From an uncultured archaeon (GTDB taxonomy: Archaea; Asgardarchaeota; Lokiarchaeia; Sigyniarchaeales; SOKP01): a DNA stretch of 64,000 bases. Shown one piece after another: positions 1 through 63,153 of the stretch (positions within the stretch are counted from its first letter, which is position 1; the number at the start of each line of letters is the position of its first letter). A program made the position numbers and the translations under genes. The notes below the pieces were generated by a model. The model was not told where the DNA came from. It searched no databases and saw only the letters and a program-made list of their open reading frames with translations. The stretch covers positions 49,081 to 113,080 of the forward strand of contig CAZWEM010000009.1 of the NCBI GenBank assembly GCA_964632315.1. Direction: 5' to 3'.

Positions 1-1916
1 GTAGTTGCAGGTTTTAACTTACCTATCACGAAGTCTAACCCTAACCTCTTCAATGTGTCATCAGTTGGAATGCCAGTCTCCTTATCCCAGCCTCTTGCTT
101 CATAATAACCACTCAATAACGTCTGAAAACCATCTTCTTTGAGAGTGACTCCCTTGGCTGGACCTTTTGTATGTGCATCCTTAAAGAATTTCTCGGGTGG
201 ATGATCATCTGCTCTTGTCCATCCTTCACGAATGTTGAAACACTTAGAGAGATTAACAATCGCTTCACCTCTGGTTAAAATGGATTCATCTGTTACTGGA
301 ATTCCAGTGACTAATTCATATACTTTTGCCATTTCCGCATCATTTTCATAAATTCCACGAGTAAATTTACAGACAATATAGGAATCAATTATGGCATACA
401 CGTCTTCAAGCTCTTTGATTGCCTTCCCGCGCTCCAATGGCTTGTCATAACCGAATCTGTCGAATTTTCCCTTAGCATCCAAACCATATGCACCATTTCT
501 TAAGTGACAAGCCCCACGAATAGATACACTTTCTCCAACTGCAAATGATGACATGCCATGAAGATCAAAAGCTGGCATTTCTAAACCTTTGATATGCATT
601 CCATAATAACTTGCATTTTTTTTACCCATTTCTTCTAGCCGTAATCCAGCCTGTTTACATCCATCACCAAACACCTCACCGGCAAATCCTTTCCCTAAGA
701 TCATCTCTTCTGTAAAACGAACAAGATTAGTCGTGCTTCCAAATGGAAGTTCATATCCTAAGTCTTTCTTGGTGATTAGCCCCTCTTCGTAGAGCTCACA
801 TGCCATTGAGGCCGTAACGCCACCACTAATGGCATCTATGCCCAAATCATCGCAAAGTGCGACGCATTTGAACACTGTAGGCCAATCCTTACAGCCAGTA
901 TTAGATCCAAATGAATAACACATTTCGACATCGATTGATGCGTATAGGTTTGGATATTCAGGATGCGTTTTTGGTACTTTAGCGATATGATCACATGCGA
1001 TTGAACATTGAGAACATGCAACTTTTTTCACGATCCAATCTTGATTTAATGTATCGCCTGTAAATGCACCATTGTCAATTTCTTCCCATGTACCTTCTCT
1101 ATAATTCATCGTTGGGAACATTCCAAGCTTATTATAGCTTGTTATACCCGCAGGAGTACCAAGATCCCGATATTTAGCTGTGGCAGGTCCATTTGCCACT
1201 TTTATCAGTTTTTTGGCGATTTTATAAAATTCAGCAGGCTGAGCGACTTTAACACCCTTGGTTCCTCGAAAACAGACAGCTTTTAAATTCTTAGAGCCCA
1301 TAACGGCTCCCATTCCCGTTCTTCCAGCTTGCCTATTTCGATCGTTGGTGATACAACCCATTCGACTCATTTTTTCACCAGCAGGGCCTATTGACATGAC
1401 AGCTAAACGATGATCTTGAAATTCTTCTCTTAAAAGTTCTTCAGTTTCCCAGGTTCCTTTTCCCCAAACCGTTTTTTCACACGGTACCAAATAATAGTCA
1501 TCGTCATCTATGACCATATAGACTGGTTCTTCAGCCCTACCTTTAAAAACAACGGTATTGATTCCAGCGCGCCGGGCTTGAGCTCCAACGGAACCAGATG
1601 AAATTGCCATCCCAAACATTCCAGTTAGTGGAGATTTAGCAAATACACCATATTTTGAACTCGTTGGAAGTATTGTTGTTGGGAATGGACCATGAGCATA
1701 AACAAACACGTTGTCAGGACTTAATGGATCAATACCTGGCTTCAGTTCATCCCAAAGGAGTTTTGCTCCAAAGCCATAACCACCGATCCAGTCACGCATG
1801 AACTCTTTGGATAACGTAGTCTTGTTGATTTTCCCGTTTGTTAAATCAACATCAAGTCGAACTTGACTATACCCTTTTACTTGATCGGGTACGGGAATTT
1901 CTTTAGCCTTACTCAT
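1..1916 (-). CDS. aor: Aldehyde:ferredoxin oxidoreductase family (W-pterin) protein, 3' end runs off the window
   Basis: Not in the ORF track. Manual translation from ATG at 1916 gives MSKAKEIPVPDQVKGYSQVRLDVDLTNG...WIGGYGFGAKLLWDELKPGIDPLSPDN...KSPLTG...GRTGMGAVMGSKNLKAV...CSQCSIAC...LCDDLGIDAISGG, all AOR-family motifs. No stop was seen near the window edge. Confidence 0.9.
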   Translation of the reverse strand, partial: MSKAKEIPVPDQVKGYSQVRLDVDLTNGKINKTTLSKEFMRDWIGGYGFGAKLLWDELKPGIDPLSPDNVFVYAHGPFPTTILPTSSKYGVFAKSPLTGMFGMAISSGSVGAQARRAGINTVVFKGRAEEPVYMVIDDDDYYLVPCEKTVWGKGTWETEELLREEFQDHRLAVMSIGPAGEKMSRMGCITNDRNRQAGRTGMGAVMGSKNLKAVCFRGTKGVKVAQPAEFYKIAKKLIKVANGPATAKYRDLGTPAGITSYNKLGMFPTMNYREGTWEEIDNGAFTGDTLNQDWIVKKVACSQCSIACDHIAKVPKTHPEYPNLYASIDVEMCYSFGSNTGCKDWPTVFKCVALCDDLGIDAISGGVTASMACELYEEGLITKKDLGYELPFGSTTNLVRFTEEMILGKGFAGEVFGDGCKQAGLRLEEMGKKNASYYGMHIKGLEMPAFDLHGMSSFAVGESVSIRGACHLRNGAYGLDAKGKFDRFGYDKPLERGKAIKELEDVYAIIDSYIVCKFTRGIYENDAEMAKVYELVTGIPVTDESILTRGEAIVNLSKCFNIREGWTRADDHPPEKFFKDAHTKGPAKGVTLKEDGFQTLLSGYYEARGWDKETGIPTDDTLKRLGLDFVIGKLKPAT

Positions 1917-2437: not shown

Positions 2438-5167
2438 ATGACTGAATCTGGAGAAATCGCAGATCAAAAAAAGGCTAAGAAAAAGATTTCAACTGAATTG
2501 TTTAGAGATGTAATTAATTCTGTGAATTATTGTTATAGTTGTAATCGATGTAACACTTCTTGTCCTGTTTCATTTTTAGGTACATTTTTTCCAAGAAATC
2601 TAATAACTGATATAAGTTTCTCATCAGTTGAAGAAGCACTAGAGAAAAATAATATTTGGAATTGCTTGACTTGTGGACAATGTGTTGAGTATTGTCCAAT
2701 GTCAAAAGAAGGAACAGGTGTAAATTTTCTTGATCTCATTTTAAACCTTAGAAGTCTCGTTTCTACTTATGAACCCTTGCAACAAGAAATGAAAAGTTGT
2801 CAGCATGATAGAGAATATACCAATATTGCCCAAATGATGGCGAATGATGAAATTGAAGTTAATGATAGGCTTGGATTTCTTAGTAGCACTAATCTAAAAA
2901 TAACAGAAAAAGGTGAGATTGGATACTTCATGGGTTGTACTCCTTATATGACCTCTATTCCTCCTTGTACAGATGCCTGTCCAGCCGGAGTTGATGTTCA
3001 GGGATATGTTGCTTTGATAAAGGAAGGTAAATTTCAAGAAGCTTTAGATTTGATAAGAGAACGAAATCCTTTACCAATCGTATGTGGTAGAGTATGTACC
3101 CATCCCTGTGAAGAAAATTGTAATCGGGAAGAGATCGACAATCCTATTGCAATACGTGCCCTTAAAAGATTCGTCTCAGATTGGGAAATCCAAAATAAAG
3201 GACATTCAAGATTTAAATCTGTTGATCAGAAAAAGGAGAAGGTTGCTATTATTGGTGCAGGACCTGCAGGTTTGTCAGCAGCATTTTATCTGGCATTAAA
3301 AGGCTATAGACCAACAATATTTGAAGAATCGGCTTTTAAAGGAGGTAAATTAAGAAGTGGGATTCCTGAATATCGCTTACCTCAAGAAGTTTTGGATTAT
3401 GAAATTGAGTTTATTGAAAAAATGGGAGTGGAAATAAGGACTAATACACCAATTGGTCCGAACCTGACTTTTAGTGATCTTAAAAAACAAGGTTATAAAG
3501 CGATTTTTATAGGAGTTGGATTAGGTGAAAGTCGTGGTATGGGAATAGAAGGAGAAGATTTAGATGATGTTATTCATGGTTTACAATTTTTAGAAGATGT
3601 AAATATTAATAACAAATCTTACGATTTTAAAGGCAAGGTTATCGGCGTTGTAGGTGGAGGAAATGTAGCCATTGACTCCGCCCGCACTGCTTTAAGATTA
3701 GGTGCTAAAAAAGTAATGGTAATTTACAGGAGATCTGAAAATGAAATGCCTGCTTTAAACGAGGAAGTTGAAGATGCTAAACGTGAAGGCATTGAATTCC
3801 AATTTTTAACTAATCCAATTCATTTGATTAGTGGAGAATCGGGTAGTTGTGAGGAAGCAGAATGCATTCAAATGGAATTAGGTGAACCTGACGCTTCGGG
3901 GAGAAGAAGACCTGTTGAAATCGAAGGTTCTCAATTCAAAATTAAAATAGATGCAATTATCCTCGCAATCGGTCAAATTGCCAATTTTAAACTTATCAAA
4001 GCTGCAGAAGATGAATTAGAGATTGATAAGCGGGGGCATATAAAATATGATAAACAAACTTTAGAAACTAATATTCCAGGAGTCTTTGCTGGAGGAGATA
4101 TATTGGCGCAAAAAGGAATTGCTATCAATGCCATCGCTAATGGATATGAAGTAGCAATATCAATTGATCGATACTTAAGAGGTCAAGATCTAAGAAAAGA
4201 TAGAGTTAATAGAGCTGATTTTAAAATATCCCCAATTCCGAAAAAGAGAATTAATGAAAAAGCGAGAAATAACATGCAAGAATTAAGCATTGAAAAAAGA
4301 GTCAGCTCTTTTGATGAGGTAGAGCAAGGATTAACTGAAGCAATTGCAATCACAGAAGCAAATCGCTGTTTAAACTGTGCAAGTTGCAACAATATCGATC
4401 AGCGTATTAACGATCCCACAGGAAAAGTAAACTACGGTAAAAATCCCACTGTCCCTCTTTATAAAACTCTTGATTATTTAGAAATTCCAAAAACCGTTAT
4501 TGGACTACTCAACCATAAAGAAATAACTCCAGTAGTTTTAAGAGAAGAGAAATGTTGTGGACATGACAGTTTGTGGAAAGGAGATGTAGAAACTTTCGAG
4601 AAGTTAGCAAAACATAATGTAAGAATCTATAAAGAAGCGGGGGTTAAAACCTTAGTTTTTAGTTGCGCGGAAGGATACTATACTTGGAAATATAAATATC
4701 CAGAGCTATTTGAAGATGATTCAGAATTTGATTTTGATATATATCATATTTCAGAATACATTTTAAAAGAAAATTTACTGGATGGTTTAAAATTTCCAGT
4801 TACAAATAAATTAAAAGTAACTTATCATGATGCGTGCCGTTTAGGAAGATTTAGTAAAATTTACGACCAACCAAGAGAAGTAATACAGTCCATACCATTC
4901 GTTCAGCTAATCGAAATGGAGAATATCAGAGAAGATGCCTTATGTTGTGGAGTAAATGCCTATATAAGTTGTAATGAATATTCGAAAACGCTTCAAAGAG
5001 ATAGGATTCTAGAAGCAATAGAAACTGGAGCTGACTACTTAATAGTGAGTTGCCCAAAATGTTTAACTCACTTTAATTGTTACCTAGATGAGCACCCTGA
5101 ATTAAAAGAAAAAATTAAAGTTATTGATCTTACTACTTTTCTAGGAAAATTACTCTTTCTTAATTAA
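2438..5167 (+). CDS. Fusion oxidoreductase: HdrC-like 2x[4Fe-4S] + CCG-domain (HdrD/GlpC-like) protein with an inserted GltD/NfnB-like FAD/NAD(P) module
   Basis: N-terminal CYSCNRCNTSCP and WNCLTCGQCVEYCP. Central PPCTDACPAG..CGRVCTHPCEENC, IIGAGPAG, VVGGGNVAIDSAR, VFAGGD. C-terminal EKCCGH, VTYHDACRLGR, LCCG, SCPKC. Confidence 0.88.
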   Translation: MTESGEIADQKKAKKKISTELFRDVINSVNYCYSCNRCNTSCPVSFLGTFFPRNLITDISFSSVEEALEKNNIWNCLTCGQCVEYCPMSKEGTGVNFLDLILNLRSLVSTYEPLQQEMKSCQHDREYTNIAQMMANDEIEVNDRLGFLSSTNLKITEKGEIGYFMGCTPYMTSIPPCTDACPAGVDVQGYVALIKEGKFQEALDLIRERNPLPIVCGRVCTHPCEENCNREEIDNPIAIRALKRFVSDWEIQNKGHSRFKSVDQKKEKVAIIGAGPAGLSAAFYLALKGYRPTIFEESAFKGGKLRSGIPEYRLPQEVLDYEIEFIEKMGVEIRTNTPIGPNLTFSDLKKQGYKAIFIGVGLGESRGMGIEGEDLDDVIHGLQFLEDVNINNKSYDFKGKVIGVVGGGNVAIDSARTALRLGAKKVMVIYRRSENEMPALNEEVEDAKREGIEFQFLTNPIHLISGESGSCEEAECIQMELGEPDASGRRRPVEIEGSQFKIKIDAIILAIGQIANFKLIKAAEDELEIDKRGHIKYDKQTLETNIPGVFAGGDILAQKGIAINAIANGYEVAISIDRYLRGQDLRKDRVNRADFKISPIPKKRINEKARNNMQELSIEKRVSSFDEVEQGLTEAIAITEANRCLNCASCNNIDQRINDPTGKVNYGKNPTVPLYKTLDYLEIPKTVIGLLNHKEITPVVLREEKCCGHDSLWKGDVETFEKLAKHNVRIYKEAGVKTLVFSCAEGYYTWKYKYPELFEDDSEFDFDIYHISEYILKENLLDGLKFPVTNKLKVTYHDACRLGRFSKIYDQPREVIQSIPFVQLIEMENIREDALCCGVNAYISCNEYSKTLQRDRILEAIETGADYLIVSCPKCLTHFNCYLDEHPELKEKIKVIDLTTFLGKLLFLN

Positions 5168-5316: not shown

Positions 5317-6201
5317 ATGGCATATAAGATATTAGAGAAAAAAGAACTTGGTAGAAGTGGCATATTAATTGAAATGGTTCTACATACTCCACTGATAGCT
5401 CGAAAAGCACGTGCTGGAAATTTTATCTTATTAAGAATAAATGAAACTGGAGAAAGGTTCCCATTAACTATAGCAGATTATGATAGAATTAAAGGAACGA
5501 TAACCATTGTGTTCCAAGTTGTGGGGAAAAGTACAAAACTTTTATCAAACCAAAACATTGGAGATGAAATCCTTGATGTGGTTGGTCCTTTAGGGAATCC
5601 AATACACATTCAGAAATATGACTATCCCGTAGTTCTTATTGGGGGTGGTGTAGGAATCGCACCTATATATCCTCAAGCCAAAGAATTGAAAGAAGCAGGA
5701 AACACAATAATTTCGATTATGGGCGCTAGAAATACAGATTTATTGTTCTGGCGTGACAAAATGCGAAGCGTGAGTGATCAGTTAATCATATGCACCGATG
5801 ATGGAACTGAAGGCATTAAAGGAGTGGTGACTGAGCCATTAAAAGAAATTATCATACATCAGAAAATAAGTATAGTGATTGCTATCGGACCATTAATAAT
5901 GATGAAATATGTGTCCCTTACCACGGATGGGAAAGGAGATTTACCCAAGGTCAAAACTTATGCATCCTTAAACACTATCATGATTGATGGAACTGGAATG
6001 TGTGGAGGGTGTAGGTTTACCACATTAGATGGTGATGTTTATTATGCGTGTGTAGATGGTCCAGATGTTGATGCTCATGCGGTTGATTTCGATAACTTGT
6101 TAAATCGATCAAGAAGATTCATTGATCTTGAAAAAGAATCCTTGGAGAAATATGATCACGAATGTAAAGCAATGAATAAATTTAAGAGCGAGGTTCAATA
6201 A
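5317..6201 (+). CDS. nfnA: NfnA/SudB-type small subunit (FAD/NAD-binding, [2Fe-2S]) of ferredoxin-dependent transhydrogenase
   Basis: GERFPLTIAD, DVVGPLG, IGGGVGIAP, TDDGT, and IMIDGTGMCGGCR...ACVDGP (Asp/Cys-ligated 2Fe-2S motif). Directly upstream of an NfnB-containing gene (1-nt gap). Confidence 0.88.
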   Translation: MAYKILEKKELGRSGILIEMVLHTPLIARKARAGNFILLRINETGERFPLTIADYDRIKGTITIVFQVVGKSTKLLSNQNIGDEILDVVGPLGNPIHIQKYDYPVVLIGGGVGIAPIYPQAKELKEAGNTIISIMGARNTDLLFWRDKMRSVSDQLIICTDDGTEGIKGVVTEPLKEIIIHQKISIVIAIGPLIMMKYVSLTTDGKGDLPKVKTYASLNTIMIDGTGMCGGCRFTTLDGDVYYACVDGPDVDAHAVDFDNLLNRSRRFIDLEKESLEKYDHECKAMNKFKSEVQ

Positions 6202-9034: not shown

Positions 9035-10156
9035 ATGAAAAAGCATAAACATACTCTTCAGGAAAAAATGGGACCATCACTCGGTACTTCGGTACGAAAT
9101 TGGAGTAAGATGGTGATTTCAAATCGTTCCTTTTCTTTAAGATATTTTCCTAGAATTTTCTTTGTAGATTTTCTTAGTTCTATTGGAATTCCTTTCAGGA
9201 TTTATGAAAGGTGGAGATACGATAAATTAATCGATAAAATTGAGATTAAAAAGGCCCCAATCTTCATATTGGGCCACTGGAGAAGTGGAACTACTCATCT
9301 GCATAATTTATTATGCCAAGATCCTCAATTTGGGTTCGTAACAATGTTAGAAGCAATGTTTCCCAATGCTTTCTTAGAAAATCCTTTATTCAAATTCTTT
9401 ATGCGTGTATTTCTGCCGAAAAAGAGACCCATGGATAACATGGAGATGGGACTTGAAAAAGCTCAAGAGGAAGAGATGGCACTTTCCAACTTATTTCCAT
9501 ATACTTTCTATAATGGTTTTTACTTCCCAAAAAAGCTCAGGGAATTTTATTTCAAATACATAAGATTTGAAAATCTTCCTAAAAAAATACAGGAAAAGTG
9601 GATAGATATCTATAATTACCTCCTGAGAAAGACTACTTGGAACATGCATGGTAAACAGTTAATCTTGAAAAATCCTGCAAATACGGGAAGAATAAAATTT
9701 CTTTTGAAATTGTTCCCAGATGCTAAATTCATACATATTTATAGGAATCCATTTGTCGTCTTTGCATCGACGAAGCGTTTTTATCAGAAAACAGTTGATG
9801 CATTTAAGTTGCAAAGAATTTCTGATGAAGAAATTGAAGGAGATATTCTCTGGATATATAAAAATATGATGAAAACTTATTTTAAAGAGAGAGAGTTGAT
9901 TCCAAAAGAAAATTTAATTGAAGTAAAGTTTGAAGATTTGGAAACACAACCTCTTGTCGAGTTAGAAAAAATATATAAAAATTTGAGAATTGACGGTTTT
10001 AATAAAGCTGTTCCATTATTTTGTTCTTATTTAGATAGTCAGCATAGCTATAAGAAAAATCTTTACAAATTTTCTCGAAGAATGATTGAAAAGGTAAAAT
10101 CATATTGGAGATTCACGATAGACAGATGGAAATATGATTCTCCTGAAAGCGATTAA
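9035..10156 (+). CDS. PAPS-dependent sulfotransferase family protein
   Basis: 5'-PSB loop PIFILGHWRSGTTHLHNLL, LKNP, FPDAKFIHIYRNP (3'-PB), and V-K-F-E-D-L motif. Confidence 0.85.
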   Translation: MKKHKHTLQEKMGPSLGTSVRNWSKMVISNRSFSLRYFPRIFFVDFLSSIGIPFRIYERWRYDKLIDKIEIKKAPIFILGHWRSGTTHLHNLLCQDPQFGFVTMLEAMFPNAFLENPLFKFFMRVFLPKKRPMDNMEMGLEKAQEEEMALSNLFPYTFYNGFYFPKKLREFYFKYIRFENLPKKIQEKWIDIYNYLLRKTTWNMHGKQLILKNPANTGRIKFLLKLFPDAKFIHIYRNPFVVFASTKRFYQKTVDAFKLQRISDEEIEGDILWIYKNMMKTYFKERELIPKENLIEVKFEDLETQPLVELEKIYKNLRIDGFNKAVPLFCSYLDSQHSYKKNLYKFSRRMIEKVKSYWRFTIDRWKYDSPESD

Positions 10157-10322
10157 GCTTTTTTCATTGAAAAAAAGTCAATAAAGACTAAATTTCTATT
10201 CTTCCCTACATAGGTACGTTTAATTTTTTCTATTATTTCCACTTTTGCAGCGCTTAGAGTTTAAAAAGACAAAACTTATACTTTTTACTTCATTTAGTAA
10301 AGATATAGAGAAAAATAGTCTT

Positions 10323-13300
10323 ATGGTTATAAATATTAAAGGTTATACTTGCCCTTTCTGTAGCAACGATTTAGAATCAAAATATTCTAAATGTTTCAAT
10401 ATATATTGCCAAGGCCAAGAATTTAATATAGGAAATTTAATCAATTATAGATTTAACCTTGAATTAGGTATAGGGAGAATAATAGGGAAATTAGAAATTC
10501 CGACCTCTAAATCTCTTGATGAAGAGGATACTCAGTATATTATTAAATATAAAGTCAGATTTGAGAATAATGTCACTAAGATAATCCATCCTATTGACTT
10601 AATTCATCATGTTTTTCAATTGAATGAGCGAGTAGTCACTCGTAATGGAGTTGGAGTTATCAATTCCAATGATTTTCTACTAGAAAATGGAAAGATTTCA
10701 TATGAAGTCCTTTATCCAAATGGGAAACTCGATCAAGTCTCTGAATCTGATACTTTCTCCATTTATCAAGAACCAGTGAAGAAAATTTTAGAACAAAAGA
10801 AACTTGATCCGCCGAGACAATTCCTAATTAAATATTGGGCGAATCTCTTTCATTCATTTTATACTTCGTATCAAATTAAATGTATAACAAACTCTAGACT
10901 TACTTTAATGCCACATCAAATAAATGTCGCTCACCGATTATCAGAGGAATATTTTCCAAGAGTCATTTTAGCAGATGAGGTTGGGCTTGGAAAGACTATT
11001 GAAGCAGGAATATACGTAAAGGAAATGATGGCCAGGAACTTGGCAGAAAGAGTTTTAATCATTGTGCCAGCAACTTTAGTAAGACAATGGCAATTCGAAA
11101 TGGAAAACAAATTCAACATGGAATTTGTAATCTATGATGGACAAAAAATAAAAGAACTCAAAAAAAATGGGAATATTTATAGTCAAGATAAATTAAGAAA
11201 TCCTTTTTTTTACGATAATTGTATTATATGCTCACTTCAATTTGCCAGAAATCCGAAATATGCAGAACTTTTAGGTCAAGTTTCATGGGATATAATCATA
11301 TTTGATGAGGCACATCATTTAAGGAGATATATTACAAATTTATCCACAGGAAATTATAGAGAAACTCTTAATTATAGTTTAGCGAGAAATTTAAGTGATA
11401 GTTGCCAGAGCTTATTATTATTAACTGCCACCCCACTTCAACTTCATTCATTTGAATTATTTTCTTTAATCGAACTAATAAAGGGGGGTACTTTCGAGAA
11501 TTTTTCTGACTTTGAGCATTTTAGGAAAAATCTACCGTTCATAAATTTACTTGTTTTTAACTTGAATAATATAAGTCATCTTAATAATTTTGAAGTAAAA
11601 AACACCATAAAATTATTAAAAAATTTAGGGTATATCAACAAGCGGGATTCCGATATTAAAATACTTGAGCATCTTAATTCAGATGATTACAAATTTGAAC
11701 TCATTAAAAAGGTTGAAAAGGACCATACATTATCAAAATTTCTAATTCGCAATCGTAAAAAGAATGTATTCTTTGATGAATATTTGAATAAAAGAATTGT
11801 CCAAACTATAATGGTACATCCAAAAAACGAAGAACTTGAAATCTATAATGAAATTCGCCTTTATCTTGCAAAAATTTACAATACCTCCGTGAGTAAAACA
11901 AATGTAGGACTCGGATTTGTTATTACAACCTTGCAAAAATTACTTACTAGCTCTAAAATTGCATTTTTAAAGAGCATTGAGAGACGCCTAGATCAAATTG
12001 AGCGCTCGAAGAGCTTAAGTTCCCAAGTTGATGACATTTTTGATGAAGATCCCGAGTTTTTTGAATCTGAATTAGAAGATGAATATTTAGACTCAGAAAT
12101 TTCTTTCAATTCAAATCGGGAAAAAGAACCATTGTTAAACTTAACCAACCAAGAACGAATCTTAAAGCATTTTTATGAGAAATTAATATCAATTCCATAT
12201 GATTCCAAATTAGATGCTCTTTTAAACTTGATGGAATCAATTTATAGAGATAATCCAAAAGAAAAGATATTAGTTTTTACTCAATTCGTCGATACACTTT
12301 TTTATCTACGAGATCTATTATCCAAACAAGGATATTCTACTTATATTTTTTATGGAGGGATGGATAAAGTAGAGAAACAGCATGCTGTGGAAAAATTTAG
12401 GGCAGACGAGGATTTTTCAATTCTACTATCTACAGAAATAGGAGGAGAGGGTCGCAATTTTCAATTCTGTAGGATTCTTATGAATTATGATCTTCCATGG
12501 AACCCCATGAAGTTAGAACAGAGAATAGGACGTTTAGATAGAATTGGTCAGCAATCGAAAGAAATTTTCATTTATAATTTTTTCTTAGAAGGAACTATTG
12601 AAACAGATATAATATTTGCCTTAGATAAACGCATAAACCTATTCGAAGAATCAATTGGACAACTTGAACCGATCATAGGAAACATCGAAAAAGATATGAA
12701 GGATTTAATATTTGCCTCAGAGAAAGAAAAACGTAGAAAATTAAACGAATTCACGCGTAAGCTTGATATGGAAGTAAAAAGGGCTAAAGAAATTGAAGTT
12801 CAATTGGACGATTTAATGATTGATAAGAAATCATTTCAAGTTGATGATTTAGTCACTTCTAGGGATAGTTGCGAAGAAGTGAAGCTTAGTCATAATGAAC
12901 TTTATTTATTGATAAAATATTTCTTCAACTTGGAAGAAGGAAAATATGGATTCTTTATTCCCGAAAAAGAAAATACAGTGAATAGTGAAGTCACGATTAA
13001 AATCTCGGAGGAATTGCGTAATAATGAACGATTAAGATTGTTTGAGGAATATTCTGGCACATTTGGATTGAATCTTGCGCGTGAAATGGAAGAGATCGAT
13101 TTTTTTGCCTTAGGTCATCCTCTCATTACGAATTTAATTGAATACTGTGAATCTAGGGCTTTCAATGGCTTATATACAATTTTATTTTTGAAGAAAAATG
13201 CACTTCCCTCAAGATTGGTAAATAAGATAAACCAGTCCAATACATTTTATCTCTTTATTTTTAGCATAAAGTTTCAAGGATATATCATTGAAAATCAATA

Positions 13301-13883
13301 CAATGCCATTATTATTGATAAAAATGGTAATGAGATTGAACATTTGGCTGAATTTTGTTTAGATATAGGACAATATGACAAAATTTTTGATTTTACCAAT
13401 TCAACTCCTAAAAATATAGAAGTAGATTCTCAAAAAATTGATACTTTAAGAGATCATGCTAAAAAAATCCTTAAAAGGAAAACCTCCGCATGGAAAAAGG
13501 AAATTAAGCGATTGAACGATAAAATTTTTGAGATTGAAAGATCTAAAAAAGAGAAAATTCACCTAAATAAGAAACGATTGCTTAAATACAAAAAAGAAAT
13601 TCTTTTTATAAAACTAGAGAGAAAAGAACGTCAAAGACCTACGAAACGTCAGATGCGAAATATCTATGATTTGACTGACAAGAAGAAGCAAGAAGAGAAA
13701 TTAGATAATATTAACTCTTTAGAGGAAGAAATTAAGTTCATTAAAAAGGATATTGAAATTGTTGAGAGAAAATTGGATGATTTAGAGTTTCAATTCGAAG
13801 ATGCGAAAAAGGACTTAAAAAAGCAAAATTTGGCGAAATTCTATACGAATATTAGTTCGTTCGCTATTATTAAGGTGCTTTAA
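10323..13883 (+). CDS. SNF2-family (RapA/HepA-like) ATPase with N-terminal Zn-ribbon and C-terminal coiled coil
   Basis: LMPHQ, ILADEVGLGKT, DEAHH, LLTATP, STEIGGEGRNFQ, YDLPWNPMKLEQRIGRLDRIGQ. N-terminal CPFC..C..YC. ATG at 10323 preferred over the track's TTG at 10245. Confidence 0.88.
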   Translation: MVINIKGYTCPFCSNDLESKYSKCFNIYCQGQEFNIGNLINYRFNLELGIGRIIGKLEIPTSKSLDEEDTQYIIKYKVRFENNVTKIIHPIDLIHHVFQLNERVVTRNGVGVINSNDFLLENGKISYEVLYPNGKLDQVSESDTFSIYQEPVKKILEQKKLDPPRQFLIKYWANLFHSFYTSYQIKCITNSRLTLMPHQINVAHRLSEEYFPRVILADEVGLGKTIEAGIYVKEMMARNLAERVLIIVPATLVRQWQFEMENKFNMEFVIYDGQKIKELKKNGNIYSQDKLRNPFFYDNCIICSLQFARNPKYAELLGQVSWDIIIFDEAHHLRRYITNLSTGNYRETLNYSLARNLSDSCQSLLLLTATPLQLHSFELFSLIELIKGGTFENFSDFEHFRKNLPFINLLVFNLNNISHLNNFEVKNTIKLLKNLGYINKRDSDIKILEHLNSDDYKFELIKKVEKDHTLSKFLIRNRKKNVFFDEYLNKRIVQTIMVHPKNEELEIYNEIRLYLAKIYNTSVSKTNVGLGFVITTLQKLLTSSKIAFLKSIERRLDQIERSKSLSSQVDDIFDEDPEFFESELEDEYLDSEISFNSNREKEPLLNLTNQERILKHFYEKLISIPYDSKLDALLNLMESIYRDNPKEKILVFTQFVDTLFYLRDLLSKQGYSTYIFYGGMDKVEKQHAVEKFRADEDFSILLSTEIGGEGRNFQFCRILMNYDLPWNPMKLEQRIGRLDRIGQQSKEIFIYNFFLEGTIETDIIFALDKRINLFEESIGQLEPIIGNIEKDMKDLIFASEKEKRRKLNEFTRKLDMEVKRAKEIEVQLDDLMIDKKSFQVDDLVTSRDSCEEVKLSHNELYLLIKYFFNLEEGKYGFFIPEKENTVNSEVTIKISEELRNNERLRLFEEYSGTFGLNLAREMEEIDFFALGHPLITNLIEYCESRAFNGLYTILFLKKNALPSRLVNKINQSNTFYLFIFSIKFQGYIIENQYNAIIIDKNGNEIEHLAEFCLDIGQYDKIFDFTNSTPKNIEVDSQKIDTLRDHAKKILKRKTSAWKKEIKRLNDKIFEIERSKKEKIHLNKKRLLKYKKEILFIKLERKERQRPTKRQMRNIYDLTDKKKQEEKLDNINSLEEEIKFIKKDIEIVERKLDDLEFQFEDAKKDLKKQNLAKFYTNISSFAIIKVL

Positions 13884-42653: not shown

Positions 42654-44537
42654 ATGAGTGAAAATTTGATAGGTTATAATGGAAAAATTGCTTATATTGA
42701 TTTAAATGCGCTAAAAGTGGAAATAAAAGATTTAGATCCTAATTTAGCGAAAGAATATCTTGGCGGTACGGGATTAAGTGCCAAATTGACTTACGATTTA
42801 TTAAATGATGCGGACTTTTCTACGCTTAAACAGGATCCTTTATCGGATATTAACCCCCTAATATTCGCGACAGGACCTGTTACTGGAACTTTAAGGCCCT
42901 CTTCGGGAAGATACTCAGTAACTGGAATTTCTCCTCTTACTGGAATCTGGGGAGAGGGCACATCTGGAGGGTATTTTTGTATTTCATTACGTAATTCGGG
43001 TTTTGATGCGATAGTAATCACTGGAAAGTCAAAGGAACCAGCTTATTTATACATCCACGATCAAGAGATTGAATTTAAAGATGCGACTCATTTATGGGGA
43101 AAAGATACCTATGAGAGTCAAGAAATCTTGAAGAAGGAGTTAAATAATGATAAAATTCGGATTGCAACTATTGGTATAGGCTCAGAAAATCTTGTCAGAT
43201 ATGGCTGTATCATAAATGATGAGGGAAGAGCTATCGGAAGGTGCGGAATGGGAACGATAATGGGCTCAAAAAATCTCAAAGCTGTGGCAATACACGGTAC
43301 CAATAAAGTTAAAATAGCTGACCCTGCAATTGGAAAACAGTATTTAAAGGAAGCAGAAGATGCTAAAAGGAGAATTCTTTTAGCAACAACAGTACCACTG
43401 CTGTTTACTCTGTACGGTACTAATTGCTATTTAGATATTGGAAGCGTTTTAGGTGATGCTCCTGGATATTACTTCACAGATACAGAGTATGTGGCTGCGA
43501 AATTAACAGGTGCAACACTTCGGGAAGAATATCCCGTACTTGACTACGGCTGTGCAGGTTGTACTATGCGATGCGGTAAAACCACACTTCTTGAAGATGA
43601 GGGCAGAGAAATAAGAGTTGATGGACCAGAATATGAGTCCGTAGCGGCGTTTGGACCACTTTGTGGAAATTTTGACTCAAAAAGTGTAGTGCTCTCTCAT
43701 CATCTTTGTAATGTGTATGGAATTGATACGATATCTGCAGGTGTAAGTATCTCATTCTTGATTTATCTAGTAGAAAATAAAATAGGTACTGATAAAATAC
43801 AATCATATTTAGAATCAATTGAACTTGAAAATCTCAAATGGGGAAACGGTGAGACCATACTTCAACTTATAGAGAATATCTCTAAAAGAAAGGGGATTGG
43901 AAATTTGTTGGCTGATGGTGTCCGAGTTATTGCTCAGAAATTGGGAGTAGACCCAGGATTAGCAGCCCACGTGAAGGGTTTAGAGCTACCCATGCATGAT
44001 CCAAGAGCCTTTGCTGGCCAAGGATTAAGTTATGTTACTTGTTGTGTAGGAGCAAATCATGAGAAATGTGATTGGTTTAGCGCTGAGTTAGGGATGGTGA
44101 GTTATCCACTCTTAAGAGTTAAAGCTGGAGATCGCTATTCAATTAAAGGACGGGAAAAAGGAGTGATTGCTCTTCAAAATATTCGGGCTATTGATGACTC
44201 AGCTGTAAATTGTAACTTTATAAATCCTTCATTACCTCATATCATTGGCCATATTAATGCTGCCACAGGACAAGACTATAATAAAAAATCTTTGATACAA
44301 GTGGGAGATCGAATTAACACTTTGAAACGTCTGATAAACATAAAACTAGGAATTACTAAAAAAGATGATTCTTTACCTACTCATATCACAAAAGTATTAT
44401 CCTCAGGAAAGACAATGGGGGTTAAATTAGATCTTGAAGATAATCTTAAGAAGTATTATGAATTAAGAAGCTGGGACTTAGAATCGGGAGCACCTACAGA
44501 AGAAAAATTAAAAGAATTGAACATAATCCCATCTTAA
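42654..44537 (+). CDS. aor: Aldehyde:ferredoxin oxidoreductase family protein
   Basis: GYNGKIAYIDL, YLGG.G, SPLTG, MGSKNLKAV, CAGCTMRC, GPEYES, YGIDTIS, VKGLELPMHDPR. SD GGAGGT at 42641-42646 supports ATG 42654. Confidence 0.92.
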   Translation: MSENLIGYNGKIAYIDLNALKVEIKDLDPNLAKEYLGGTGLSAKLTYDLLNDADFSTLKQDPLSDINPLIFATGPVTGTLRPSSGRYSVTGISPLTGIWGEGTSGGYFCISLRNSGFDAIVITGKSKEPAYLYIHDQEIEFKDATHLWGKDTYESQEILKKELNNDKIRIATIGIGSENLVRYGCIINDEGRAIGRCGMGTIMGSKNLKAVAIHGTNKVKIADPAIGKQYLKEAEDAKRRILLATTVPLLFTLYGTNCYLDIGSVLGDAPGYYFTDTEYVAAKLTGATLREEYPVLDYGCAGCTMRCGKTTLLEDEGREIRVDGPEYESVAAFGPLCGNFDSKSVVLSHHLCNVYGIDTISAGVSISFLIYLVENKIGTDKIQSYLESIELENLKWGNGETILQLIENISKRKGIGNLLADGVRVIAQKLGVDPGLAAHVKGLELPMHDPRAFAGQGLSYVTCCVGANHEKCDWFSAELGMVSYPLLRVKAGDRYSIKGREKGVIALQNIRAIDDSAVNCNFINPSLPHIIGHINAATGQDYNKKSLIQVGDRINTLKRLINIKLGITKKDDSLPTHITKVLSSGKTMGVKLDLEDNLKKYYELRSWDLESGAPTEEKLKELNIIPS

Positions 44538-61053: not shown

Positions 61054-63153
61054 CTATCCCCCACTCAATGGTACTAATTTAGAGGCAGGATTAAACTCTT
61101 TTTTACTTTGAGATATTAAATATTCATTTTCCAAGATATCTGAAACACCTTTGGTATTAGCTAAATCTGACAGTGTAAAATCCAAATCTAAAAGCTTTAA
61201 AGTTTCTTTTTTCGGAAGCCCATTTTTCTCATATCCCATTGCTTCATAGTAATCTTGAGCAATAAGTTCTACATCATAAGATTTACCTTTTAATGGGCCT
61301 TTAGTTAAAGGTGGAGAACCAATTGCCCGTTGGGCGATATAATGGTGTATTGCTTTCTCACGAGCGTTAAACATTTGACGAAGTGTCTGAATTCTATGCC
61401 CAGTTTCCAATAATTCATCAATATTAACATCCCATCCGGTTATAGCATGAATCACTTCTAAATAAGGATATGCTCCCATGTTGAGAGGAAGAATGCACAT
61501 GCCATTGGCTTCTATTGTTTGTTTGAATTTAGCATTTTTTGCCTGTAAAATCCCCAAATCATTTTCATCTTTTATCTCGAATGTACCTAATTCTTCCAGA
61601 AAGTGCTTCGCACCCATTTTATCCATGTTAAGTGTAGCTGCTGTATGTCGTCCGGGTGTAGGATCAGCAATGTAGGTTACTCCTAACATGGGATCTGCTC
61701 TTGCATCATGCATGGGAATTTCTTGTCCATTTGCGTGCATGGCATAATCTTTTGAACCAGGAATTTTTTCAGAAGCAACTTTCGTGCCATCAGCCAAAGT
61801 ATCACCAATCCCCTCACGGTTTACCATCATTTCCAATAATTGAAGTAAGTATGTATTATCCCCCCATTTGGGTAAAAATCCTTTCGGATATGATGTACAT
61901 TTGAAGTCTGTTTCGGTTAATAATCCTTGTTCACAACATTCATACACAAAACCAATAATAACTCCGGCAGAAATTGAATCCATGCCTGCACGATTTAATA
62001 ACTCATTTGCTTTGATAAGTAAATCTAAATCATCATTTAAGATTAAGCATCCTAGTGAGGCGCAAGTTTCATATTCTGGTCTATGAGTCTCTTTCTCAGC
62101 ATATGGTAAGGCTTCGTATTCTAAAATTGCTCCACATCGAGCTGGACATGAAAAGCAACCATATTGTGTTTTGATGAATTTTCTAATTCTTTTACCGCTA
62201 ATCTTGTTTGCGGATTTCATCGGAAAATCTTTATAGCCTACTCCCATAAAATTCTTTACAGGAGAATCTCCCATTTGAGAAGATATCACATTCGCTGAAG
62301 TGGTTCCTAATTGAGTGGTCGAAAACATTTGGATAATTATCTTTGGCATTGAAGGAGAATCAAACGCATCGGCTCCCAATTTAAATATTCGCATTAATGG
62401 TGCGAATGTTCCCATATTTGCTATAACTCTGGTCATAAGCCCTTTTTTTGCCATTTCATTAAACTTGGAAAGGTACAGTTTAATATGATTCATTAACCCA
62501 TCTTTGTCATGTAATTCAAGCTTTCCACTTTCTTTATCTCTACGTATACATACAGCCTTTAGCTTTTTAGATCCCATAACTGCCCCAAGACCACTTCGAG
62601 CAGCAATTCTTCCCGAATCATTAATTACACCTGAAATTAAAGAGAGATTTTCACCCGCGGGACCAATACAAGCTACTTTAACTCTGGGACCATGTATCTT
62701 TTCAATTACTTTTTCCGTTTCTATACCATCCTTTCCCCCTAGCTCAGAAGCGTCTAGTAATTGAATTTCTTTTCCATCAATAAACAAATAGGTTGGTTTT
62801 TCTGCTTTTCCTTCAAAAAAAATAGCATCAAGGCCGACTTTTTTAATTTCTGGACCAAATGTCCCTCCAGAATTGGCGTTACCCCATCCTCCTGTTAGAG
62901 GACTTTTTCCACATACCATATAGCGTCCTGAGAAGGGGGTTGCAGTTCCAGTAAATAATCCAGGGCATATGCCCAATATATTTTCTGGTCCCAAAGGATC
63001 AACACCGGGTTTTAGATGAGTATAGATGTAATATACTCCTAATCCATATCCCCCATAATATTGACGATAAATCTTATCTGGGAGCGTCTCAATTTGCCAA
63101 CTTGAATCAGATAAATTGACTACTAAAATTTTTCCATAATAACCGAGTGGCAT
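61054..63153 (-). CDS. aor: Aldehyde:ferredoxin oxidoreductase family protein
   Basis: GYYGKILVVNL, YYGGYG, KSPLTG, GLGAVMGSKKLKAV, CFSCPARC, PEYET, GMDSIS, EIPMHD. ATG 63153 or GTG 63162. Confidence 0.92.
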   Translation of the reverse strand: MPLGYYGKILVVNLSDSSWQIETLPDKIYRQYYGGYGLGVYYIYTHLKPGVDPLGPENILGICPGLFTGTATPFSGRYMVCGKSPLTGGWGNANSGGTFGPEIKKVGLDAIFFEGKAEKPTYLFIDGKEIQLLDASELGGKDGIETEKVIEKIHGPRVKVACIGPAGENLSLISGVINDSGRIAARSGLGAVMGSKKLKAVCIRRDKESGKLELHDKDGLMNHIKLYLSKFNEMAKKGLMTRVIANMGTFAPLMRIFKLGADAFDSPSMPKIIIQMFSTTQLGTTSANVISSQMGDSPVKNFMGVGYKDFPMKSANKISGKRIRKFIKTQYGCFSCPARCGAILEYEALPYAEKETHRPEYETCASLGCLILNDDLDLLIKANELLNRAGMDSISAGVIIGFVYECCEQGLLTETDFKCTSYPKGFLPKWGDNTYLLQLLEMMVNREGIGDTLADGTKVASEKIPGSKDYAMHANGQEIPMHDARADPMLGVTYIADPTPGRHTAATLNMDKMGAKHFLEELGTFEIKDENDLGILQAKNAKFKQTIEANGMCILPLNMGAYPYLEVIHAITGWDVNIDELLETGHRIQTLRQMFNAREKAIHHYIAQRAIGSPPLTKGPLKGKSYDVELIAQDYYEAMGYEKNGLPKKETLKLLDLDFTLSDLANTKGVSDILENEYLISQSKKEFNPASKLVPLSGG

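Follow-up and report, generated by a model that had tools for sequence, protein, structure and literature searches.

Flavoprotein modules of the NfnB/GltD type are known as insertions in the iron-sulfur domains of larger redox proteins. They have been published for HdrA, under the names HdrL (PMC2702500), type III HdrA (PMC12054007) and, in ANME-1, HdrA9-11 (PMC9012536), as well as for NuoG-like subunits such as StnC, in which the GltD domain (aa 102-565) is nested (PMC10482914). Here, an insertion of this kind into yet another host is described. It lies in P0001, an HdrD-like protein of an uncultured archaeon of the Lokiarchaeia (order Sigyniarchaeales, SOKP01), which is encoded in a stretch of 64,000 nucleotides, hereafter called the window (GenBank assembly GCA_964632315.1, contig CAZWEM010000009.1, positions 49,081 to 113,080 of the forward strand). 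Gene positions are those of the window unless a locus is named.

Proteins with the HdrD-type set of iron-sulfur domains serve different functions. In the catalytic HdrB, both CCG motifs are complete (C-X31-39-CC-X35-36-C-X2-C), with Cys81 and Cys234 as bridging cysteines, while in EtfD, whose clusters follow one another in the solved structure in the order CCG1 cluster, CCG2 cluster, cubane, cubane, His583 renders the CCG1 cluster non-catalytic (PMC13083937). The HdrD-like BamD relays electrons to ETF beside the tungsten enzyme BamB and the polyferredoxin BamC (bioRxiv 10.64898/2026.04.10.717634). P0001 resembles HdrD/HdrBC, EtfD (9ojn_A) and BamD in its two cubane motifs and two CCG domains, one CCG motif being degenerate as in BamD and EtfD. 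It differs from HdrBC, EtfD and BamD in that its flavoprotein is covalently nested in CCG domain 1 rather than docked, and in that it has no membrane anchor.

A flavoprotein module nested in CCG domain 1

The 504-residue FAD/NAD(P)H module of P0001 occupies the β1-α1 loop of CCG domain 1, directly past C167. The protein is encoded by one intact frame of 909 codons without an internal stop, and annotation of proteins of this type goes no further than 'FAD-dependent oxidoreductase'. Two CxxCxxCxxxCP motifs and two CCG (PF02754) domains with an HdrB-like fold mark P0001 as HdrD-type, and the presence of Fer4_20, an FAD fold, an NAD(P)H Rossmann fold and eight invariant ligands (C177, C181, C216, C220, C224, C228, C644 and C647) identifies the GltD/NfnB module. 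The features of the gene are as follows.

2438-5167, plus strand: whole gene of P0001, a 909-aa HdrD-like protein with a nested permuted GltD/NfnB module (open reading frame, translation, homologs, AlphaFold2 model)
2513-2701, plus strand: HdrC-like ferredoxin domain with two CxxCxxCxxxCP motifs, C32/35/38/42 and C76/79/82/86 (Pfam Fer4_8/9/10, NCBIfam HdrC)
2912-2950, plus strand: N-terminal fragment of CCG domain 1, comprising strand β1 (IGYF) and the first cluster cysteine, C167 (alignment, model)
2951-4462, plus strand: insert, residues 172-675, a circularly permuted GltD/NfnB-type FAD/NAD(P)H module plus linker (NCBIfam PRK12771 over 166-655, alignments)
2957-4186, plus strand: module core, residues 174-583, with C177 and C181 (third and fourth cysteines of the first motif), C216/220/224/228, the FAD fold GAGPAG and the NAD(P)H fold GGGNVA...IYRRSENEMPA (aligned with T. 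maritima NfnB 45-462 and with P0003 487-901, 45%)
4265-4387, plus strand: permuted segment, residues 610-650, equivalent to the canonical NfnB N-terminus and ending RC644LNC647ASC650 (aligned with T. maritima NfnB 5-43 and P0003 417-485)
4388-4462, plus strand: variable linker, residues 651-675, which returns the chain to CCG domain 1 (lower pLDDT of 67-70)
4463-4747, plus strand: remainder of CCG domain 1, residues 676-770, with helix LDYLEIPKTVIGLLN, C706-C707-G and C743-A-E745-G746-Y (Pfam CCG profile 14-78)
4805-5080, plus strand: CCG domain 2, residues 790-881, with the complete five-cysteine motif C800, C836, C837, C872, C875 (Pfam CCG 794-879, profile 1-84)

The boundaries of the insert emerge from comparison with uninterrupted homologs. 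An HdrD-like paralog in the same genome (C52; G000:C52:15207-16457) aligns with both flanks, residues 32-171 of P0001 with its residues 35-167 (30% identity) and 683-902 with 177-405 (37%), and has nine residues (KFEFDELDP) in place of about 511 in P0001. A closer uninterrupted homolog of 414 aa, found in metagenome-assembled genomes of Promethearchaeota (P0141/P0275), aligns from 1 to 170 with residues 1-171 (43%) and from 179 to 413 with residues 678-908 (59%). At the junction, P0275 reads ...IALFIGCLPLM-EDMIYNFK-VDYLANPKSIIGMLN... and P0001 reads ...IGYFMGCTPYM-(504 aa)-LDYLEIPKTVIGLLN..., and the insert therefore corresponds to residues 172-675, in place of an 8-residue loop right after C167. 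The counterpart of the N-terminal fragment in paralog C52 is 'VLYHVGCLPYF', as 'IALFIGCLPLM' is in P0275.

Profile searches agree with this layout. The first Pfam CCG match sets in only with position 14 of the 85 in the profile, at residue 680, and the 13 positions before it are thus absent there; TfrB/GlpC-type models cover both CCG domains over residues 680-904. Within the insert, Fer4_20 matches 175-253 (profile positions 30-111 only) and Pyr_redox_2 matches 268-567, while the HdrC-like dicluster (residues 26-88, Pfam) resembles the HdrC of PDB entry 5odc_C. Across 71 aligned full-length homologs, F164, G166, C167 and P169 are invariant together with every other predicted cluster cysteine, including all eight of the HdrC domain, and so are C644, C647 and C650; the linker (651-675), in contrast, differs among homologs in length and cysteine content.

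An AlphaFold2 model built on the same alignment has a mean pLDDT of 87.3 and a pTM of 0.87, and residues 161-164 are predicted as a strand with pLDDT >90. Exhaustive structural comparison (VIA) matched residues 1-274 of HdrB (8rvu_B) to residues 159-909 of the model (Z 20.5, root-mean-square deviation 2.6 Å, 239 aligned residues), and the HdrD-like EtfD (9ojn_A) to residues 17-908 (Z 24.3, 2.9 Å, 362 aligned residues). Since both matches span the two flanks, the split halves re-form the HdrD fold around the insert. Foldseek with the whole model returned a list filled by GltD, NfnB and DPD chains, which is uninformative on the CCG part. An initial annotation, made from the sequence alone, had read the locus as a domain insertion rather than an end-to-end fusion, and this reading is confirmed: the flanks are contiguous in C52, P0141 and P0275, which have a loop of 8-9 residues there, the remainder without the insert aligns with HdrD-like proteins as one contiguous CCG domain, and the split domain reassembles in the model, its flanks superposing on solved HdrB and EtfD. 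The coordinates also agree, with IGYFMGCTPY at 2918-2947 and PPC...RCLNC at about 2960-4378.

Distribution of the architecture

Such a protein might in principle stem from an assembly chimera, the possibility that the initial annotation had named against itself, or from separate hdrD and gltD genes wrongly called as one; nothing was found that speaks for either. Full-length homologs of P0001 (51-93% identity, 900-930 aa) number more than 100 and come from independent assemblies, including contigs of 0.3-1.8 Mb. When 400 species genomes of the phylum were searched with a junction-spanning probe (P0001 residues 600-770), full-length matches, in frames of 800-930 aa, occurred only in the window's own GTDB family among the matches listed. 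The architecture is present in about 84 of the 134 genomes of this single Lokiarchaeial family, some of which have two or three copies. These independent homologs and junction matches, together with the open frame and the confident model, exclude a chimera, and an artefact of either kind is extremely improbable. Beyond the phylum-level search, the whole architecture was found in only one other representative among 1.84 billion representatives of 50%-identity clusters; the remaining strong matches in that set have only the 173-650 module in common with P0001, and its place in these proteins (494-1504 aa) varies.

Circular permutation of the module

The canonical NfnB order, with an N-terminal helix and RCxxC before CX3CP and the flavin folds, is not found in P0001. 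Against the canonical NfnB domain encoded nearby (P0003, see below), residues 174-581 align with 487-901 (45%), and residues 585-647 align with 417-485, a segment that lies upstream in P0003. HMMER comparison with T. maritima NfnB (4ylf_B) likewise yields two pieces, 610-648 matching 5-43 and 175-583 matching 45-462. The NfnB of the NfnAB (NfnSL) transhydrogenase is thus unpermuted, unlike the module of P0001, the core of which is nonetheless 44-45% identical to it (VIA Z 39 to 4ylf_B). In these alignments, the first motif, C-X2-C-X4-C-X3-C-P, is evidently cut between its second and third cysteines, with C644/C647 closing the module and C177/C181 opening it. Because the module is circularly permuted, both of its ends meet at the distal [4Fe-4S] site.

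Over residues 175-651, the P0001 module is colinear with StnC (8oh5_C, 102-567) and with the NfnA proteins of C. saccharolyticus (9bov_A, 102-570) and T. sibiricus (9n5u_A), and the model matches StnC and T. sibiricus NfnA with a VIA Z of 47. The designation of the insert as GltD-like in the initial annotation is therefore right as to family, but the module has the permuted form found in StnC and Bfu-type NfnA rather than that of a canonical GltD. With these, it shares the permuted order, the nesting in a host domain and the NADPH-type YRR motif; the host domain and the complex are different, and in those enzymes bifurcation takes place in HydBC-like subunits, at an FMN site. C216 of the second motif is kept in P0001, whereas Ile or Leu stands there in Bfu-type proteins. 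In the open-access literature, no mention of the permutation was found in the Stn and NfnABC papers.

The predicted cofactor wire

Alignment of P0001 with EtfD pairs C706/C707 with C538/T539, C743 with C581, E745 with H583 and G746 with C584, and it pairs C800, C836, C837, C872 and C875 with C637/672/673/709/712, the five ligands of the noncubane cluster. CCG2 is thus complete. CCG1, on the other hand, departs from the pattern of catalytic HdrB, reading C743-A-E-G746 with Gly for the bridging cysteine (the Cys81 equivalent), a feature that is invariant in the family. The CCG1 pattern of P0001 (C, CC, C, then G) hence differs both from the five cysteines of Hdr and from the C, C-T, CxxC of EtfD. 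The motif C[ASP]EGY is common to the whole family, the sister group and paralog C52, and it was not found in the other ~25 CCG proteins examined in the genome, most of which keep CxxC. By homology to EtfD, HdrB, NfnB and StnC, the cofactors of P0001 may form a linear wire in the order cubane, cubane, CCG2, CCG1, distal GltD cluster, proximal GltD cluster, FAD, NAD(P)(H). Like BamD and EtfD, P0001 would carry electrons between Fe-S partners and a flavoprotein.

The NAD(P) fold occurs in two subtypes. The first, present in the window protein, reads 'GGGNVAIDSART...IYRRSExEMPA' (residues 396-470, window 3623-3847); the YRRS/EMPA motif is common to the NADPH enzymes NfnB, StnC and NfnA, and the window's subtype probably uses NADPH. 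The second, 'GGGAVAVD...LVDILxEE', contains an acidic residue and looks NADH-like. Host tree and module tree agree in nesting the 'VDIL' subtype, as a clade, inside the 'YRRS' subtype.

Gene neighbourhood

Next to the P0001 gene, the window contains the following genes.

3-1916, minus strand: tungsten aldehyde:ferredoxin oxidoreductase (AOR), divergent from the P0001 gene (Pfam AFOR_N, AFOR_C)
5317-6201, plus strand: NfnA-like gene, 150 bp downstream of the P0001 gene
6203-8920, plus strand: 905-aa fusion of ferredoxin, FrhB and canonical unpermuted NfnB (P0003), separated from nfnA by a 1-nt gap

The AOR gene is followed, just outside the window, by one for a 185-aa four-cluster polyferredoxin (Fer4_11; G000:C9:48504-49061). 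This association recurs: an AOR gene lies within 0.2-5.6 kb of the inserted gene in 29 of 40 loci and a polyferredoxin gene nearby in 27, while neither was found at any of the 20 loci of the uninterrupted sister gene. The AOR of those 29 loci is the ortholog of the window AOR (81-89% identical in 26, about 60% in three), encoded either immediately downstream on the same strand or divergently upstream, and the polyferredoxins are 74-77% identical across subtypes. With about 16 AOR-family (AFOR_C) genes in the genome, the pairing is specific rather than a matter of gene density. About 10 of the 40 loci also have nfnA and frhB-nfnB after the inserted gene. This grouping of genes for a tungsten AOR, a four-cluster polyferredoxin and an FAD/NAD(P) protein recalls AorABC of Aromatoleum and the WOR1-type systems (PMC6365974, PMC12318220); P0001 differs in also carrying Hdr-type CCG clusters. 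No evidence was found that its flavoprotein is related to AorC or WorABC.

Three of the AOR-family genes lie in the window (e.g., at about 43401-44525, plus strand, and 61183-62319, minus strand). With about 25 CCG-domain proteins as well, the Hdr/AOR inventory of the genome is unusually large for an organism that is not known as a methane producer. Farther along the window, a 1212-aa reading frame with a TTG start (10245-13883, plus strand) lies downstream of a sulfotransferase gene (9035-10156).

Hosts and origin of the module

The closest relatives of the insert are nested in two other hosts. In HdrA, the module lies in the ferredoxin domain (P0118-P0125). As in HdrL and type III HdrA, the same kind of module is nested in P0001 within an Fe-S domain of the Hdr system beside cluster ligands, with boundaries IPPC ... 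RCLNCxxC; the host of P0001, however, is the CCG1 loop of HdrD, and its chain has neither HdrA domains nor a thioredoxin-reductase-like bifurcating FAD domain. In FrhB, the module lies inside FrhB_C, just before FrhB's own CxxC, in an 822-aa protein of the same genome (G000:C39:2430-4898, minus strand; L021:2430-4898) whose gene is the last of a DsrE-HdrC-HdrB-HdrA-MvhD-(Oxidored_q6) operon. HdrD-hosted, FrhB-hosted and some HdrA-hosted modules form one clade (FastTree support 99; IQ-TREE SH-aLRT 92-93), in which the FrhB-hosted module groups as sister with the HdrD inserts of the 'VDIL' subtype. The FastTree module tree was rooted on P0003 and the genome's other NfnB, two sequences that did not separate cleanly as an outgroup when IQ-TREE was used.

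An origin of the insert from the neighbouring nfnB gene, or gene conversion by it, was considered and rejected. P0003 is unpermuted and falls, in the IQ-TREE run as well, outside the clade of HdrD- and HdrA-hosted modules, so that the insert does not derive from the adjacent nfnB. The phylogeny against this neighbour that the initial annotation had proposed thus shows no derivation from it, and the YRRSE/EMPA motif shared with P0003 is general to NADPH-type GltD proteins.

A single branch (support 100) separates the 32 inserted from the 20 uninterrupted sequences in the tree of the host flanks. Secondary loss of the module in the uninterrupted 414-aa form was rejected as well: a free quick tree nests that form among the inserted ones, but a tree constrained to a single gain is 13.8 log-likelihood units better (p-AU 0.755). 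One insertion event fits the data, and a single gain is preferred; the root rests on long branches.

The source of the module is suggested by the sister loci. At nine of 20, a large gene lies no more than about 60-90 bp downstream of the uninterrupted sister hdrD; in both loci inspected, it encodes 1648 aa (L092:10291-15234 and L086:9923-14869, both plus strand). In the one locus scanned with Pfam, the product is of the HdrA type, has two thioredoxin-reductase-like FAD regions and carries the permuted module in its ferredoxin domain and MvhD at its C-terminus. An NfnA-like gene of 279 aa lies beyond the 1648-aa gene on the other strand. The modules of these sister-locus HdrA proteins are the sister group of the HdrD-hosted inserts, to which they are 57-59% identical (supports 84-93). 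These HdrA-hosted modules end in 'EANRCLNCASC-CECFECVRAC', the last four cysteines being HdrA's own CX2CX2CX3C, and the module of P0001 ends in 'EANRCLNCASC650', with 'EANRCLNCASC' identical in the HdrA-hosted module of L092. The invariant C650 accordingly looks like a vestige of the HdrA motif, and the most economical reading of these sequences appears to be that HdrD received the module from an HdrA encoded next to it. The proposal of the initial annotation that HdrA is not needed holds in that none is present in cis; a module-bearing HdrA does stand behind the sister hdrD, unlike the inserted form.

pGltD and HdrD have also been joined in another manner. In Syntropharchaeia and Ca. Methanoxibalbensis, end-to-end fusions with an N-terminal pGltD followed by uninterrupted HdrD (947 and 864 aa) arose independently. 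Of the two fusion loci (L083:6961-10844 and L084:1680-17560), one has the fusion directly after an MTHFR/MetF-like gene and the other has it in a cluster of acyl-CoA dehydrogenase, ETF, HdrD, HdrA, MvhD, FrhB and FdhA-like genes. The operon of paralog C52 (G000:C52:10679-21161; L020:1679-12161) encodes a polyferredoxin of 443 aa, two FrhB-like proteins, HdrD, a 1036-aa double HdrA, MvhD and a URO-D-like protein.

Proposed function

P0001 is proposed to be an HdrA-independent NAD(P)(H) port on HdrD, a through-wire coupled to AOR; this reading is given a probability of about 0.5. The cubane end of the protein would dock the adjacent tungsten AOR and the four-cluster polyferredoxin, as the neighbourhood suggests. 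Electrons from aldehyde oxidation would enter at the cubanes and run along the wire, and the FAD end would reduce NAD(P)+; the CCG pair, located mid-wire, would act as a relay and possibly also as a disulfide-reducing site. Related arrangements have been described: AorC performs an analogous electron transfer to NAD(P) in AorABC (PMC6365974), and WOR nanowires occur with an NAD-reducing module, the nanowire being joined to a bifurcating module in WOR1 (PMC12318220). A third precedent is BamD with its electron relay to ETF. Several points weigh against this proposal. No AOR gene is nearby in 11 of the 40 inserted-gene loci, and the 40 loci come from related genomes of one family and are no independent samples, adjacency being in any case no proof of binding. 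The nucleotide specificity is deduced from motifs only, CCG1 has just four cysteines with CxEG, and the complete five-cysteine CCG2, which is of the catalytic type, may possibly keep a disulfide substrate. The sister relationships of the modules, finally, are only moderately supported (SH-aLRT 84-93).

The initial annotation had taken the protein for a stand-alone, single-chain NAD(P)H:heterodisulfide (or other disulfide) reductase, possibly bifurcating. In such an enzyme, electrons would pass from NAD(P)H to FAD, through the two GltD clusters and on to the CCG pair, leaving the HdrC-like cubanes vestigial or as a side entrance. The full set of cofactors, the complete CCG2 and the retained HdrB-like fold are in its favor, as are the loci in which the inserted gene stands alone and the recurrence of the pGltD/HdrD pairing as independent fusions in Syntropharchaeia. 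However, CCG1 has G746 where HdrB has Cys81, and an invariant E745 at the position of EtfD His583 (PMC13083937), and the HdrD-like BamD and EtfD are relays rather than disulfide reductases. Moreover, no disulfide substrate is known for this organism, and the adjacency of AOR and polyferredoxin in 29 of 40 loci would be left unexplained. With a CCG1 that is without the catalytic bridging cysteine, and AOR and polyferredoxin as conserved neighbours, identity as a heterodisulfide reductase is unproven, and this function is possible but rather unlikely. The conserved neighbours point instead to a through-wire to NAD(P) or to a hub with three ports, at which bifurcation or confurcation would couple the AOR-polyferredoxin pair, at very low potential, with NAD(P)(H) and with a disulfide or thiol at the CCG pair; in some genomes, the NfnA-like protein encoded downstream could be involved. 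In NfnAB-type bifurcating units, the NfnA/NfnS partner brings a [2Fe-2S] cluster and a second FAD, which contacts the bifurcating FAD. The wire offers three possible points of entry or exit, an NfnA-like gene is found downstream in the window and in about 10 of 40 loci, the FAD of NfnB bifurcates in NfnAB (PMC10482914), and WOR1 couples its nanowire to a bifurcating module (PMC12318220). StnC, on the other hand, which among the solved permuted relatives is the closest whose FAD has been tested, serves as an NADPH input that does not bifurcate (PMC10482914), and the bifurcation site of Csac NfnABC is in NfnB/NfnC and not in the NfnL-like domain of NfnA (PMC11829005); bifurcation, which the initial annotation had considered possible, thus finds no support. 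The chain shows a single exit path from the FAD, and nfnA, which is absent from most loci, most likely partners the FrhB-NfnB protein, because a 1-nt gap separates those two genes while 150 bp separate nfnA from the P0001 gene. A hub of this kind therefore appears quite improbable.

The most far-reaching formulation is a previously undescribed, HdrA-free Asgard complex of HdrD[pGltD], AOR and polyferredoxin, in which a wire of six clusters would link three ports (aldehyde/acid, NAD(P)(H) and thiol/disulfide) coupled by bifurcation or confurcation, the module having moved from HdrA into the CCG domain. It is regarded as improbable.

Implications

In the open-access literature, no report was found of an insertion into the CCG domain of HdrD, of an insertion into FrhB, of the permutation as an enabling feature or of the link with AOR. 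HdrD and FrhB are thus added hosts of the permuted NAD(P)H module, beyond HdrA and NuoG-like subunits. Because the permutation places both ends of the module at the outermost Fe-S cluster, it can enter the cluster-binding loops of unrelated hosts. Anaerobic energy coupling draws on Hdr-type CCG proteins and NfnB-type flavoproteins as its building blocks, and their rewiring shows how new redox enzymes originate. With P0001, Asgard archaea, whose electron flow matters to syntrophy models of the origin of eukaryotes, gain a link open to testing that would join NAD(P)H, Hdr-type clusters and tungsten-dependent aldehyde oxidation without HdrA.

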